From: Candidatus Peribacteria bacterium RIFCSPHIGHO2_01_FULL_51_35
GTDB taxonomy: Bacteria > Patescibacteriota > Gracilibacteria > Peribacterales > Peribacteraceae
Direction: 5' to 3'
Length of the DNA stretch: 64,000 nt
Assembly (NCBI GenBank): GCA_001787535.1
Contig: MFXP01000002.1
Location: 21,597 to 85,596 of the forward strand
The stretch's first letter is position 1; the number at the start of each line of letters is the position of its first letter. Both the position numbers and the translations under genes were made by a program. Positions 33,196-35,800 of this stretch are shown piece after piece. A model generated the notes under the pieces. The model was not told the origin of the DNA. It saw only the letters and a program-made list of their open reading frames with translations, and ran no database searches.

Positions 33196-33903
33196 TTATC
33201 CGTGGACGTGAGTGCCTATTTTCTCACCAAGAGCCGCTTTCAGCAAGGAGCCCTGCTTCAAAAAGTTAAAAACGATGATCGGCAGGTTTTGATCCTGACA
33301 AAGGCTGAATGCCGCTTGATCCATGATTTCCAGATGCTTCTCCAATGCTTCTTTGTACGTCACAGAATCATATTTTACCGCGTCCTTGTGCTTATTCGGG
33401 TCTTTATCGTAGATGCCATCTACGTTTGTGGCTTTGAGAACGACATCGCACGAAAGTTCCAGTGCACGGAGCGCGGCGGCGGAATCCGTCGTGAAGTAGG
33501 GATTTCCTGTGCCACCTGCGCAAATCACAATTCTTCCTTTGTCCAAGTGACGGAGCGCACGACGTTTAATGAAAGGCTCCGCAAGTTGCGGCATGTTGAT
33601 GGCGGAGAGCACACGTGTTTCGGCTCCCAAGGAATCCAATGCAGCCTGGAGTGCAACGCTGTTCATAACGGTCGCCAGCATGCCCATGGCATCCGAAACC
33701 GTCCGCTCGATGCCGTTTTCCTTTGTATCGCGGTAGCGCCAAATATTTCCTCCGCCAACGACAATCACAAGCTCGATGCCCTTCTTCGAAACTTCCATGA
33801 TTTGTTTTGCAGTATCCAAGAATGCCTTTCGGTGGATGCCGTACTCATGTTCTCCGGAAAACACTTCGCCGGAAAGTTTCAACATGATGCGTTTGAATTT
33901 CAT
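33196..33903 (-). CDS. pyrH: UMP kinase
   Basis: LKLSGE, VGGGNIWR, MGMLAT, GTGNPYFTTD. Confidence 0.96.
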   Translation of the reverse strand: MKFKRIMLKLSGEVFSGEHEYGIHRKAFLDTAKQIMEVSKKGIELVIVVGGGNIWRYRDTKENGIERTVSDAMGMLATVMNSVALQAALDSLGAETRVLSAINMPQLAEPFIKRRALRHLDKGRIVICAGGTGNPYFTTDSAAALRALELSCDVVLKATNVDGIYDKDPNKHKDAVKYDSVTYKEALEKHLEIMDQAAFSLCQDQNLPIIVFNFLKQGSLLKAALGEKIGTHVHG

Positions 33904-34406
33904 ATGGTTGGGGGAGAAGGCGGATTTGGTGCGATGTGTTCTTTTTCAACCGCTTTCGCAACTTTGCCTGCACGCTTGAAAAACTTTTTAAGCGCAGTCA
34001 CCAGTTGCGCGACTGCATGTACCAAATCATGCCACGTCCCTTTAAGCGTCTTCTCTCCTCTGGAAAGAGGCCCGACGAACGGAACATCCTTCTTCTTGCC
34101 CTGCGCAGCATTGATGAAGCCAATGACCATGCCCGCGAGCACGATCAATTCCAGAAAGCGGGAGAAGTAATCAAATGGAATGAACCAGATAAGCACGGTG
34201 AGCCCGAACAGGATCATCGCCTGCTTTGCATGAAAGCGGACGAATGGAGAATCTTTTTTCAAGAAAAACACGACGACGGACATCACCCACAAATAGCTGA
34301 AGGCGGCGATGTCTTTGTTTTCGTCTACATCATGCTCCGGGGAGAGTGTCGGCTTTGGCACCTCTGCCGATGGCTCCTCTGTTGGCTCTGGAAAGGCATT
34401 GTCCAT
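33900..34406 (-). CDS. DUF4870-like membrane protein
   Basis: AAFSYL...KDSPFVRFHAKQA...GFINA.QG...VPFVG. Confidence 0.75.
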   Translation of the reverse strand: MDNAFPEPTEEPSAEVPKPTLSPEHDVDENKDIAAFSYLWVMSVVVFFLKKDSPFVRFHAKQAMILFGLTVLIWFIPFDYFSRFLELIVLAGMVIGFINAAQGKKKDVPFVGPLSRGEKTLKGTWHDLVHAVAQLVTALKKFFKRAGKVAKAVEKEHIAPNPPSPPTI

Positions 34407-34481
34407 ATCTAAGAAAGTATACCATAAAACGCTTCGCTGAACCAAGGTAAGGCTGCAGAAAGACCTCAATGAAAAGCCGAA

Positions 34482-34551
34482 TGGTACCCCCGGCAGGAAT
34501 TGAACCTGCGGCCAACCCCGCGCTAAACGCGGGCCTGCTCTAACCACCGAG
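34482..34551 (-). pseudogene. tRNA-Arg pseudo-copy (D-arm remnant to CCA) with anticodon arm replaced by a CCCGCG hairpin
   Basis: 34482-34515 is identical to the tRNA 3' part; followed by ccccgcg-ctaaa-cgcggg and a degenerate D arm. Confidence 0.75.
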
Positions 34552-34762
34552 AAACGTTTTTGGAGTTTTTAATACGTTTCTCCAGTAGCTTGGCTTCAGC
34601 TATTGAATTACAGGGTATAAATTTTCGCAAAGTCCAATTGCCGATTCTTTTGGTTGTGTGGGTATGGCCATGTGCATGCTGTACTAGCCTACGTTCAAGA
34701 TCCGTCGTACTCCCAACGTAGAACCTCGATCCCTGTAAAATATAAACACCAATTTTTTTCAT
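34523..34762 (-). CDS. Small GIY-YIG nuclease-family protein
   Basis: GVYIL..RFYVGST.DLERRL.QH..G...TT, EA..LE..IK. Confidence 0.85.
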   Translation of the reverse strand: MKKIGVYILQGSRFYVGSTTDLERRLVQHAHGHTHTTKRIGNWTLRKFIPCNSIAEAKLLEKRIKNSKNVSRWLEQARV

Positions 34763-34766
34763 AAGA

Positions 34767-34842
34767 TGGTACCCCCGGCAGGAATTGAACCTGCGGCCAA
34801 TAGGTTAGAAACCTACTGCTCTATCCACTGAGCTACGGGGGC
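34767..34842 (-). tRNA. tRNA-Arg(TCT)
   Basis: GCCCCCGTAGCTCAGTGGATAGAGCA-GTAGG-TTTCTAA-CCTAT...GGTTCAATTCC...GGGGGTACCA. Confidence 0.95.
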
Positions 34843-34897
34843 GTATTTAAATTATGTATGAAGAATGGCAAATTAGGAATGCCTCATCGAAGCAACA

Positions 34898-34948
34898 GCC
34901 AACCCCGCGTTAGGCGCGGGGCTGCTCTATCCACTGAGCTACGGGGGC
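34898..34948 (-). pseudogene. tRNA-Arg 5'-half pseudo-copy with the same replacement hairpin
   Basis: Identical to the tRNA 5' 27 nt, then ccccgcg-cctaa-cgcgggg-ttggc. Confidence 0.75.
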
Positions 34949-35212
34949 ACGAAAGAATCGTACCAGAACCGTGCGATCAGCAAATGTGTTTTGGCCTCTC
35001 TGCGGACTCTACCCTATGGAAGAACTGCGGGAACTCCACTCTCATTCTTAATAAAGAGCACCATAAACGTCTTCTTCATCTTTCTGCGCTGAGCTTGCTC
35101 ACCGCGACCGTTGGGATACGCGTACTTCCGACGACGGATGGAACGGAGCTTGCGACCGGGAATGGAGTAGATAGTGCAAGAGACGAGAGTGAGCATAAAA
35201 GGGAGAGAGAAA

Positions 35213-35332
35213 TCATTCTTGCTTCTGCGGTCGCAATGCCCTGTTGACCGCAATGGCAAGCGCCATGGAATTGACGAAGATGAGCAGCGGAAGGAGGTAA
35301 TAAAAGACGGGGGTGAAGGTGTGAAGCAGCAT
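35213..35332 (-). CDS. Putative 39-aa single-TM micro-protein (MLLHTFTPVFYYLLPLLIFVNSMALAIAVNRALRPQKQE)
   Basis: Hydrophobic core followed by a basic tail. Confidence 0.45.
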   Translation of the reverse strand: MLLHTFTPVFYYLLPLLIFVNSMALAIAVNRALRPQKQE

Positions 35333-35672
35333 GGCGGAGACATTTGCAGAGAGAACGATTCCTGACCAGGGAAAATCTCAAGATTTTAGATCACAGTATT
35401 TGCCGGTTGTATAGTCCCGCGATGCTTTCTTTTTCTCAAAATATATGAGATGCGAAAATAATTTTCCGTGCATAGATGAAAAACAGAAAAATTATAATCG
35501 GAATATTTCCATATTATTTTTTAAAAAAAGAAATTTTTGGTAAATTTTTTTGCTGAAATTCTTTTTTTGTTAAATGCGAAGATGACATATATTTTCTTTT
35601 ACGCCGCAAAAAATATTTTCCGAATTTTCATTTCATTGTACAATTACTTCCAATCTTTCCCCCTTCCTTCTC

Positions 35673-35741
35673 ATGGCAAAGAAAGCAAAGAAGAGGAAGA
35701 AGACAAAGGCAAAAAGGAAATCGAAGAAGAAGCGCCTTTAG
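35673..35741 (+). CDS. 22-aa extremely basic peptide MAKKAKKRKKTKAKRKSKKKRL
   Basis: Pyrimidine-rich leader, AT-rich upstream region, terminator immediately downstream. Confidence 0.6.
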   Translation: MAKKAKKRKKTKAKRKSKKKRL

Positions 35742-35753
35742 TCTCGACTTCTG

Positions 35754-35784
35754 AAAAAAGCGTCACAGAGTGTGGCGCTTTTTT
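35754..35784. terminator. Bidirectional intrinsic terminator
   Basis: AAAAAAGCGTCACA-gag-TGTGGCGCTTTTTT between convergent genes. Confidence 0.75.
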
Positions 35785-35800
35785 ATTTCAATAAAATCAT

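Follow-up and report, generated by a model that had tools for sequence, protein, structure and literature searches.

On the minus strand of the analysed window, a stretch of 64,000 nucleotides from contig MFXP01000002.1 of Candidatus Peribacteria bacterium RIFCSPHIGHO2_01_FULL_51_35 (positions below are those of the window), a partial 5' copy of tRNA-Arg(TCT), here termed copy A, is followed by the intact tRNA-Arg(TCT) gene, a GIY-YIG ORF and a second, hairpin-bearing tRNA copy, copy B, the whole running from 34948 to 34482 (Table 1). The tRNA gene is the only tRNA-Arg(TCT) called by ARAGORN in the genome. The insert behind it is about 285 nt long with one ORF of 79 codons, the ATG of which lies 4 nt (34766–34763) from the tRNA CCA. 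This layout, its coordinates and the 4-nt gap had been proposed in an initial annotation of the DNA, and were reproduced on the minus strand by ARAGORN, Rfam, ORF and repeat comparison.

Table 1. Features of the tRNA-Arg(TCT)/GIY-YIG locus, in minus-strand order.
Feature	Position	Strand	Basis
Copy A, partial 5' copy of tRNA-Arg(TCT)	34898..34948	-	Sequence comparison with the intact tRNA
Spacer from copy A to the intact tRNA; first part a decayed T-arm-like remnant	34843..34897	-	
Intact tRNA-Arg(TCT)	34767..34842	-	ARAGORN; Rfam tRNA 73.4 bits (cut-off 29)
GIY-YIG ORF, 79 aa plus stop	34523..34762	-	Pfam PF01541
Copy B, hairpin-bearing tRNA copy	34482..34556	-	Comparison with the intact tRNA; Rfam below cut-off
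Terminator-like stem-loop (copy B 3' acceptor strand plus flank), then T-rich tail	34476..34494	-	Consensus match only

In copy A, 34948–34922 is identical to tRNA positions 1–27 (27/27) and is followed by a GC-rich 19-nt hairpin (34921–34903; 7-bp stem, 5-nt loop) in place of tRNA positions 28–42, and by TTGGC (34902–34898), which corresponds to positions 43–47. The T-arm-like sequence 3' of TTGGC is decayed and extends to about 34886. Folded as DNA, copy A has an energy of −13.5 kcal/mol (z −2.75). Copy B begins with a D-arm-like segment (34556–34535) matching tRNA positions 6–27 at 18 of 22 nt, carries a GC-rich 19-nt hairpin (34534–34516) again replacing positions 28–42, and continues at 34515–34482 with positions 43–76 (identity 34/34). 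The exchange of the 15-nt anticodon stem-loop for a 19-nt hairpin at the identical place in both copies is as initially annotated. So is the end of the ORF, which shares its last 11 codons with copy B (D-arm-like part and hairpin): the D-arm-like part encodes the C-terminal residues and the hairpin loop provides the stop codon (TAG, 34525–34523). The exact tRNA repeats of 27 and 34 nt have E values of 7e-12 and 5e-16, respectively. In the window, CCCGCG-N5-CGCGGG is found twice (0.22 expected), a count that taken alone is a weak test because 3 of 100 shuffles also reach two. The idea that a simple insertion divided one tRNA-like gene with a hairpin into copies A and B was rejected, since about 40 nt (D arm, hairpin and TTGGC) are present in both.

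Neither copy qualifies as a tRNA. In copy B the 5' acceptor strand is missing, and the Rfam RF00005 score of 19.6 bits is below the gathering cut-off of 29; the 'tRNA-Leu(tag)' called by ARAGORN at 34482–34554 is this copy and was dismissed. Copy A gave no Rfam match at E ≤ 1. A scan of 33800–35800 at the same threshold returned no intron or other RNA family besides tRNA, and a plastid match opposite the intact tRNA was judged spurious. No promoter-like site was found at 34300–35300 in a σ70 consensus scan. Co-transcription of the ORF with the tRNA is plausible, as judged from this result and from the short CCA–ATG gap. The 20 sequencing runs listed for the locus included no RNA run. Two terminator-like sites were found versus a shuffle mean of 1.2, no more than by chance.

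The protein matches the Pfam GIY-YIG domain with 42.3 bits (cut-off 22.6) over residues 5–69, and its predicted structure (pLDDT 87.4) shows the order E-E-H-H-E-H-H of the GIY-YIG fold, in which helices flank a three-stranded sheet. The catalytic domain fills all 79 residues and leaves no separate DNA-binding domain. Among 15 relatives 16 columns are invariant, including Y7, Y15, R25, H29 and E61; the Tyr, Tyr, Arg and Glu residues are those we take to form the GIY-YIG active site. The closest folds in the PDB according to Foldseek are the N-terminal domain of UvrC (1yd6, TM 0.63), UPF0213 (1zg2), Slx1 (6seh) and I-TevI (1ln0), all of them GIY-YIG domains, with no match reaching E ≤ 0.001. Sequence searches of the PDB gave only weak matches to UPF0213 proteins (E 0.078 and 0.16). 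In size and fold the protein resembles these minimal stand-alone Slx1-like/UPF0213 proteins (1zg2, 1ywl), for which the accessible text of Dunin-Horkawicz et al. (2006; PMC1564403) reports neither a function nor a tRNA context. Between relatives, dN is 0.19–0.33; dS was at least 1.7 in three of 15 pairs and not computable for the other 12. At the sequence level, the protein is conserved and its silent sites are saturated; dating of the tRNA copies by dS fails for this reason and was abandoned.

The initial annotation had advised verification of the assembly. One alternative is that reads of tRNA-related sequence, derived from several members of the metagenome, were wrongly joined. Logan contigs from four runs of four studies, one of which may be the source sample, tile 34300–35150 without a differing letter. 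Contig pieces at 34486–34795, 34816–34948 and 34922–35150 span every junction and break only at short repeats. A further contig, present in all four runs, links 34521 to 34916 via 15 other letters. Its shorter side being only 26 letters, it was judged not to be an allele and was taken as a related hairpin–tRNA unit from another organism or locus. Breaks at repeats, and a higher depth over the tRNA-like parts because tRNAs of other organisms map there, are what mis-assembly would produce as well. However, with all junctions bridged without differences in four runs and the identical architecture recurring in independent genomes (see below), we regard an artefact as extremely unlikely.

Of the 401 genomes of the class that were sampled, 31 hold a relative of the protein at E ≤ 1e-8. 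The analysed set comprised 32 loci from 32 genomes, 30 from this search and two from another. The initial annotation had suggested testing such loci for adjacent tRNA genes and anticodon-replaced copies. ARAGORN placed a same-strand tRNA within 132 nt of the gene at 29 of the 32 loci; of the other three, two start at a contig edge within the 3' part of a tRNA, and the upstream sequence of the third stops after 85 nt. The neighbouring tRNAs at the 29 loci are Lys-TTT (16), Lys-CTT (4), Arg-TCT (3), Met (3), Trp (1), His (1) and Asp (1), and units of nuclease and hairpin occur at genes of all six amino acid specificities. Their conserved core is a single-domain GIY-YIG gene of about 73–84 codons plus the hairpin (C/T)CCCGC-loop-GCGGG(G/A), and one intact tRNA copy is always kept at occupied sites. 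The GC hairpin directly follows 16 of 17 5' copies ending at the 5' foot of the anticodon stem and directly precedes 22 of 22 3' copies starting at its 3' foot, i.e. it abuts 38 of 39 foot-broken partial copies. A strict breakpoint rule recognised units in 20 of the 32 loci. By eye, nine further loci showed a hairpin-substituted unit and two had the hairpin in place of another arm (the T arm of His; part of the D/anticodon region of Trp), the last being cut by the contig end.

The hairpin stems covary: besides CCCCGC/GCGGGG we found CTCCGC/GCGGAG, TCCCGC/GCGGGA, CCCTGC/GCAGGG, CCCCGA/TCGGGG, TCCAGC/GCTGGA and CTCGGC/GCCGAG. Among 3' copies of at least 31 nt, 15 of 17 are 100% identical to the adjacent tRNA, the other two differing by one base. 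Such identity despite saturated silent sites indicates that the spare copies are renewed or homogenised and are not old neutral relics. The 5' stubs end at varying points in the T arm, tandem arrays of stubs and units occur, and hairpin loops are inverted between copies within three loci (L033, L038 and L048).

As the initial annotation had also proposed, the locus was compared with relatives lacking the gene. A genome of the same genus (G001) contains neither the ORF nor copy B; its tRNA-Arg(TCT) and the downstream genes DUF4870 and pyrH are ordered as in the window, and a 5' stub (tRNA positions 1–18) with a GC hairpin is retained. Two others (G004 and G018) have clean tRNAs and no nuclease gene beside the same tRNA. 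In the protein tree, whose resolution is poor (of 25 inner branches 13 are open, and the bootstrap had not settled), a seven-member clade with the window protein (support 94/90) spans Arg-TCT, Lys-TTT and Lys-CTT sites, and another clade unites one His and one Lys site. Related genomes are in general not independent samples, and some loci are inherited, since two of the genomes (G000 and G011) share synteny. Weaker GIY-YIG relatives, mainly from Actinomycetota, have a tRNA within 300 nt at 1 of 30 loci; the absence of the tRNA link there limits the association to this clade and its near kin.

These data bear on the thought that the locus is the relic of an ordinary integrase-borne island or prophage, the insertion of which duplicated the end of the tRNA gene in the manner of att sites and most of which has been deleted since. 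A repeat of the tRNA 3' end downstream of an insert is the usual att signature, and such a repeat is present downstream of the insert here. However, no integrase or transposase family was detected in the ORFs of the window from 25.8 to 42 kb (within about 7 kb of the locus), in agreement with the initial annotation, which had seen no integrase. Moreover, the 5' half is duplicated as well, the start of the repeat coincides exactly with the anticodon stem foot and the arm is exchanged for the hairpin, as in 38 of 39 copies across loci, and the insert is small with equal content in many genomes. A decayed island is hence very improbable. Group I introns, some with homing endonuclease genes, reside in the anticodon loops of bacterial tRNA genes and resemble the present case as selfish elements aimed at the anticodon region. 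They differ in that Rfam detects no intron RNA here and in that an intact tRNA is kept alongside instead of being restored by splicing.

The whole genome (1.2 Mb) was searched for similar arrangements. All six GIY-YIG matches lie beside tRNA genes at distances of 5–358 nt; the share of random 200-nt segments lying as close to a tRNA gene is 0.037, so that six out of six has a probability of about 2e-9. The cassette or its remnant is present at 8 of 46 tRNA genes. GIY-less derivatives include a solo hairpin-substituted tRNA-Lys(CTT) copy, 13 nt 3' of that tRNA, and a mini-cassette 3' of tRNA-Pro(CGG). Hairpins of the type CCCGC-N3-5-GCGGG number 40, versus 4.6 (maximum 8) in 20 shuffles. Many of the 40 lie inside longer palindromes, and the CCCGC/GCGGG core is found at many non-tRNA sites of the genome.

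The initial annotation had left the choice between a minimal tRNA-targeting mobile or homing element and a module of a nuclease and a tRNA mimic. In the latter, the copies would be functional tRNA-like RNAs, such as decoys, processing signals or stabilisers of the nuclease mRNA, co-transcribed with the tRNA and the ORF. The close spacing of CCA and ATG in a region devoid of promoter-like sites, the sustained identity of the 3' copies to the tRNA, the covariation of the hairpin stem and the use of the copy B acceptor strand in a terminator-like stem are compatible with this. It is opposed by the truncated acceptor stem and sub-threshold score of copy B and the lack of any Rfam match for copy A, by the variable ends of the 5' stubs, by the inverted loops, which are easier for a DNA palindrome than for a specific RNA, and by the occurrence of the hairpin core away from tRNAs. 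GIY-less solo copies and stubs likewise speak against it. We therefore consider an RNA-level role improbable, and of the two original options the mobile or homing element is favoured by the many tRNA hosts, the G001 site without the gene and the absence of an integrase within about 7 kb.

The closest known systems are phage SegB and the Ssn family of nucleases with hairpins. SegB is reportedly larger and has a DNA-binding part, whereas the window protein comprises 79 residues in one domain. SegB and the window protein both have a GIY-YIG catalytic domain and a gene among tRNA genes; as with Seg-type genes, the nuclease gene is present or absent at the same tRNA in relatives, and the ORF ends in D-arm-like sequence. 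Sequence similarity to the phage protein is at superfamily level only (TIGR01453, 21.2 bits against a cut-off of 56), and NCBIfam returned nothing above cut-off. SegB of phages T4 and T6 has been described as a free-standing homing endonuclease in a tRNA gene cluster (PMC2330249). According to the accessible text of PMC13096335, genes for SegB homologues are found more often than expected at distances of up to 1 kb from tRNAs, and SegB causes segmental and tandem amplification by cleavage and recombination, for which the 3' end of segB shares microhomology with the tRNA 5' region. The accessible parts of both papers describe no exchange of a hairpin for the anticodon arm and no split tRNA copies.

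Ssn enzymes, e.g. SsnA of Neisseria meningitidis (CDD cd10448), are site-specific single-stranded-DNA nucleases with NTS/SRM hairpin repeats. Their genes are flanked on both sides by hairpin-forming repeats of 20–50 nt, and the repeat–gene–repeat layout was likened by the authors to an insertion sequence (accessible text of PMC11893778). The window protein is likewise a small single-domain GIY-YIG protein, the two hairpins of the locus flank the tRNA and the ORF, and the genome is rich in related hairpins; the protein is set beside Ssn by description, as Pfam and NCBIfam identify only the generic GIY-YIG domain. One might thus suppose a host-serving, Ssn-like nuclease with cognate hairpins scattered over the genome, for instance limiting incoming DNA, whose gene merely borrows strong tRNA promoters and whose tRNA copies are by-products of local amplification and not of movement. 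The hairpins of one type on both sides of the gene, their excess in the genome, the size and hairpin-flanked setting of Ssn proteins, the amplification at tRNA genes attributed to SegB and the tandem arrays of stubs and units would agree with this. On the other hand, the unit is present or absent at syntenic sites among close relatives, related proteins occupy different tRNA species, and the hairpin always replaces a tRNA stem-loop and is never free beside the gene, as the Ssn repeats are. In addition, the exact hairpin of this locus occurs genome-wide only in copies A and B, and the word 'tRNA' does not appear in the main text of the Ssn paper (PMC11893778), the accessible part of which reports no tRNA link. 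A host-serving nuclease is, on balance, unlikely.

In our judgement the locus is probably one copy of a small, presumably selfish DNA cassette that lives in tRNA genes. The cassette would consist of a minimal GIY-YIG nuclease and its cognate hairpin and, judging from the sequence comparisons, probably spreads among tRNAs sharing D-arm and variable-loop sequence. No published description of such a nuclease/hairpin/tRNA cassette was found in the literature searched. The predicted nuclease would attack DNA able to form hairpins, be it the hairpin of the cassette or a stem-loop in a tRNA gene. Recombination may then repair the break or nick, with the conserved tRNA segments on both sides, 5' ...TAGAGCA(G/A) and 3' (T/G)TGG..., serving as homology arms. 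The nuclease gene and the hairpin would thereby be copied into tRNA genes sharing these segments, and split or duplicated tRNA halves such as copies A and B would arise as by-products. Transcription of the nuclease gene probably starts at the tRNA promoter, and 3' processing of the tRNA would then release it. Repeated invasion and loss could then leave behind 5' stubs, GIY-less remnants and spare segments identical to the working tRNA.

Some observations stand against the cassette. The tRNA-Lys(TTT) gene of the same genome is unoccupied despite having ...AGAGCAG and TTGG... on either side of its anticodon arm, and the exact hairpin of the locus has no further genomic copy. Plain homing, i.e. 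cutting the anticodon arm of an empty allele, moreover has a self-targeting problem, because the adjacent intact tRNA equals that of G004 over positions 1–49. It is conceivable, although we hold it doubtful, that the minimal element moves by a structure-guided exchange of hairpin for hairpin. The GIY-YIG enzyme of about 75–80 residues would then cut the bases of stem-loops extruded from single-stranded or cruciform DNA, with targets both in the GC hairpin of the element and in tRNA genes (anticodon or T stem-loop). Joining of the element would take place at the cut point while a working tRNA copy is regenerated. Such a movement would be transposition-like, with recognition of DNA shape and not of a long sequence, and nuclease-less hairpin copies could be mobilised in trans.

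Elements that carry an integrase classically insert at tRNA genes. In these ultra-small, genome-reduced bacteria, tRNA genes appear to be colonised by something far smaller, namely a hairpin and a single gene for a nuclease of 79 residues. Should the enzyme prove to recognise hairpins or cruciforms in DNA at defined stem feet, it would extend the recently described Ssn class to a mobile context, explain many stray 'pseudo-tRNA' calls in annotations and give laboratories a structure-specific DNA cutter of very small size. The locus would also be a natural case of an essential single-copy gene hosting a parasite by always keeping a spare intact copy.

Read along the minus strand, the locus consists of a partial tRNA copy (copy A), an intact tRNA-Arg(TCT), a GIY-YIG ORF and a second partial copy (copy B), and both this order and the hairpin swap match the initial annotation exactly. 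In each copy, tRNA positions 28–42 are replaced by a GC hairpin that stacks on the retained 27:43 pair. In copy A the hairpin is followed by TTGGC (tRNA positions 43–47) and a decaying T-arm-like stretch. The ORF begins 4 nt after the intact tRNA, and its last eleven codons pass through the D-arm-like segment of copy B into the copy B hairpin.

Coordinates of the locus (window positions) and of examples of core hairpins elsewhere in the same genome (contig:positions)
Feature	Position	Strand	Description
Copy A, 5' tRNA part	34948–34922	-	tRNA-Arg(TCT) positions 1–27, 27/27 identical
Copy A hairpin	34921–34903	-	19 nt; 7-bp stem CCCCGCG/CGCGGGG, 5-nt loop
Intact tRNA-Arg(TCT)	34842–34767	-	ARAGORN; Rfam 73.4 bits
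GIY-YIG ORF	34762–34523	-	79 codons; Pfam GIY-YIG 42.3 bits (cut-off 22.6)
Copy B, D-arm-like segment	34556–34535	-	18/22 identical to tRNA positions 6–27
Copy B hairpin	34534–34516	-	19 nt; TAG stop of the ORF inside the loop
Copy B, 3' tRNA part	34515–34482	-	tRNA positions 43–76, 34/34 identical
Core hairpins, examples	C8:64543–64596, C6:90198–90262, C5:2194–2258

The 'tRNA-Leu(tag)' called by ARAGORN at 34482–34554 is copy B and was rejected, with an Rfam score of only 19.6 bits against a cut-off of 29; the Rfam tRNA search gave no match at copy A. Copies of this hairpin-substituted kind probably give rise to false tRNA or suppressor-tRNA calls in genome annotation. The flanking genes are of housekeeping type, with PriA, an aquaporin-type channel, SpoU methylase, an amidotransferase, ribosome recycling factor, UMP kinase and a DUF4870 membrane protein in order on one side, and a DUF4215-repeat protein, pyruvate kinase and RsmH on the other. 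No integrase, transposase or phage families were found from 25.8 to 42 kb of the window, in line with the earlier remark that an integrase is missing.

Logan contigs from four runs of four studies tile positions 34300–35150 completely with zero differing letters, a check made with contigs and including one run that may be the source of the window. The pieces 34486–34795 (copy B, ORF and 3' part of the tRNA), 34816–34948 (5' part of the tRNA, spacer and copy A) and 34922–35150 together bridge each junction, and breaks occur solely at the 27- and 34-nt repeats. Seven out of the 20 public runs listed, these four among them, contain at least half of the sampled words, none of them an RNA run. The occurrence of the same architecture in independent genomes, described below, is a stronger argument for real DNA than contig tiling. 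A short contig found in each of the four runs (X1, X3, X4 and X5) joins the hairpin regions (34521/34916) with 15 other letters between them. It matches a tRNA copy whose hairpin is longer, as in the related genomes G024 and G374, and probably stems from another organism or locus of the same community.

The window's own genome (G000; 1.196 Mb, 18 contigs) contains six GIY-YIG genes matched by the 79-aa protein, all of them 5–358 nt from a tRNA gene (Arg-TCT, Arg-TCG, Arg-CCT, Tyr, Leu-CAG and Leu-TAG). A random 200-nt segment has a chance of 0.037 of falling within such a distance of any of the 46 true tRNA genes, which for six out of six gives about 2e-9. Two further tRNA genes carry remnants devoid of a nuclease, so that eight of the 46 are marked. 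One remnant, 13 nt past tRNA-Lys(CTT) (C6:2150–2317, minus strand), comprises positions 15–27, a TCCCGC-TTCT-GCGGGA hairpin and positions 43–76, and may be derived from a unit of this type, with the nuclease missing. In the other (C2:112339–112480), tRNA-Pro(CGG) precedes a leader of about 60 nt that contains a GC hairpin, after which 17 nt of the tRNA 3' end are repeated; this remnant resembles a miniature, in another subfamily, of the cassette type found behind tRNA-Leu(TAG).

A DNA search recovered the tRNA-plus-ORF unit in three out of 41 related genomes, behind tRNA-Arg(TCT) in G011 and G023 and behind tRNA-Lys(TTT) in G024. At the G024 locus a tandem pair of 100-nt 5' copies is accompanied by the intact tRNA, the ORF and a 3' copy, and an identical 27-nt hairpin takes the place of the anticodon arm in all three copies. 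Protein relatives at E ≤ 1e-8 were present in 31 of 401 sampled genomes of the class. Thirty loci from this search and two Arg loci from the DNA search were analysed, a set in which related genomes are non-independent samples and some loci are shared by descent. In 29 of the 32 loci ARAGORN found a tRNA on the strand of the ORF and no more than 132 nt away from it (16 Lys-TTT, 4 Lys-CTT, 3 Arg-TCT, 3 Met and a single Trp, His and Asp); the ORF lies downstream of the tRNA in 23 and upstream in 6. Of the other three, two start within the 3' part of a tRNA at the edge of a contig, and the third is truncated 85 nt upstream. The association with tRNAs and substituted copies that the initial annotation had proposed to look for in GIY-YIG homologues was found in these loci of the class: the nuclease-plus-hairpin unit is conserved and its adjacency to tRNA genes strict.

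Across loci the partial tRNA copies break at recurring places. Under a strict rule, 17 5' copies terminate at the anticodon stem's 5' foot, 16 of them with a GC hairpin directly after it, and 22 3' copies start at the 3' foot, every one with a GC hairpin directly before it. This rule identified hairpin units in 20 of the 32 loci and the other 12 were judged by eye. Nine have the unit, missed through an imperfect stem, an extra insertion or the lack of an intact tRNA in the locus; in two the hairpin substitutes for a different stem-loop, the T arm in the case of tRNA-His and the D/anticodon part in that of tRNA-Trp, and a contig end truncates the last. The hairpin precisely replaces a tRNA stem-loop while one intact tRNA is retained. 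ORF and hairpin are conserved between sites; each host site has its own flanking tRNA segments and CCA-to-ATG spacer.

Several loci show further rearrangements. Some 3' copies in L028 (G374), L041, L043 and L048 have a second insertion or second GC hairpin replacing the T loop, and therefore more than one stem-loop of the spare copy is replaceable. In L051 (G005:C41, 1501–2070), behind tRNA-Lys(TTT), two truncated nuclease starts, fused in frame to a different, UPF0213-like GIY-YIG sequence, look as if one cassette had landed in another. The nuclease ORFs of families f11 and f22 (L035, L040–L043, L046–L050, L052, L053) contain one to eight in-frame TGA codons, with an in-frame TAG too in one locus, and read through if TGA is a sense codon, which fits a lineage that has reassigned TGA.

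The outer stem of the hairpin varies across lineages (CCCCGC/GCGGGG, CTCCGC/GCGGAG, TCCCGC/GCGGGA, CCCTGC/GCAGGG, CCCCGA/TCGGGG, TCCAGC/GCTGGA, CTCGGC/GCCGAG). As it covaries, pairing is maintained beyond sequence alone. Loop inversion is frequent in DNA palindromes, and in L033, L038 and L048 the upstream and downstream copies have identical stems, their loops being reverse complements of each other. The exact hairpin of the window locus occurs in its genome in copies A and B only. The core CCCGC-N3-5-GCGGG was found there 40 times, against 4.6 (maximum 8) in 20 shuffles. Many of these hairpins lie inside longer imperfect palindromes away from tRNA genes, some with conserved flanks repeated at three or four sites, and the 40 form a REP-like dispersed family. 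The 5' tRNA stub of L008 (G011) bears one of the longer palindromes.

An AlphaFold model of the protein, obtained from 15 relatives, is confident (pLDDT 87.4). Its top PDB matches are all GIY-YIG domains, namely the UvrC N-terminal domain (TM 0.63), UPF0213, Slx1 and I-TevI, none at E ≤ 0.001. Sixteen columns are invariant, including Y7, Y15, R25, H29 and E61, and the 79 residues leave no space for a DNA-binding domain in addition. Searching 1.84 billion cluster representatives with a profile returned 8699 matches at E ≤ 0.001, of which 415 reached E ≤ 1e-10 and one E ≤ 1e-30; the protein belongs to a small, tight subfamily within a very large minimal GIY-YIG family. Among 48 loci (one genome per species), 16 have a same-strand tRNA within 300 nt, 15 of the 18 best matches versus one of the 30 weaker ones. 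The former include other Patescibacteria and MAGs labelled Omnitrophota, Acidobacteriota and Pseudomonadota; the latter are mostly Actinomycetota.

The unit is present or absent among kin. In G001, of the same genus, DUF4870 and pyrH homologues lie 85 nt after tRNA-Arg(TCT), and this syntenic site has neither ORF nor 3' copy. Upstream, tRNA positions 1–18 form a stub that runs directly into a GC hairpin; a comparable stub in G009 carries a different hairpin, and the tRNAs of G004 and G018 are clean. Recombination between the 34-nt direct repeats around the ORF would remove it cleanly and leave a stub like that of G001. Among six proteins of the Peribacteria-type clade dN is 0.19–0.33 with dS saturated (of 15 pairs, 12 gave no computable value and three gave 1.7 or more), and the nuclease is therefore under purifying selection. 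Neutral DNA of the age implied by the saturated silent sites should be scrambled. The spare copies are fresh: out of 17 3' copies of at least 31 nt, 15 are 100% identical to the adjacent tRNA and two differ at one base, and lineage-specific changes are followed (TTCAATT in tRNA and 3' copy alike in G000, TTCGATT in both in G011 and G023). The spare segments are therefore renewed or homogenised. Close proteins reside at different tRNA hosts. In a tree of 28 proteins, from which second tandem copies and four loci (one misparsed ORF, three truncated or chimeric) were left out, a clade of seven including the window's protein (support 94/90) is spread over Arg-TCT, Lys-TTT and Lys-CTT genes, and one well-supported pair combines a His and a Lys site; the rest is poorly resolved, with 13 of 25 inner branches open.

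Seg enzymes have two domains, and because this feature is absent here the locus is not placed in the Seg family. SegB, a free-standing phage GIY-YIG homing endonuclease of a tRNA cluster, has homologues enriched near phage tRNA genes and drives segmental amplification by recombination between a tRNA 5' region and the segB 3' end, according to a 2026 paper (PMC13096335); this parallels the D-arm-like 3' end of the window's ORF and the tandem arrays in relatives. Members of the Ssn family (cd10448) are small GIY-YIG nucleases with a single domain, which cleave single-stranded DNA at the hairpin repeats found on either side of their own genes (PMC11893778). The main text describing them does not mention tRNA, and the locus is not placed in this family either. 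Full-text searches outside subscription journals found no account of bacterial tRNA genes that host nuclease cassettes and hairpin-substituted copies. The GIY-YIG papers retrieved instead concern phages, organelles, rRNA insertions and Ssn, and one paper on Patescibacteria merely lists a GIY-YIG protein among transferred genes.

The predicted enzyme may act by simple homing and cut the target tRNA gene, but it would then run into self-targeting, since the anticodon arm of the intact tRNA next to the ORF is the one that cassette-free alleles have. Candidate cut sites are the target tRNA gene (homing), the cassette's own hairpin (as in Ssn), or both (hairpin exchange). Copy A would be a 5' half stranded in an earlier round and copy B a 3' half with its junction, and the nuclease gene may be expressed from the tRNA transcript. 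The unit appears to be selfish and would spread between tRNA genes sharing the anticodon-arm flanks ...TAGAGCA(G/A) and (T/G)TGG..., by a predicted nuclease-initiated recombination in which conserved tRNA segments would serve as homology arms.
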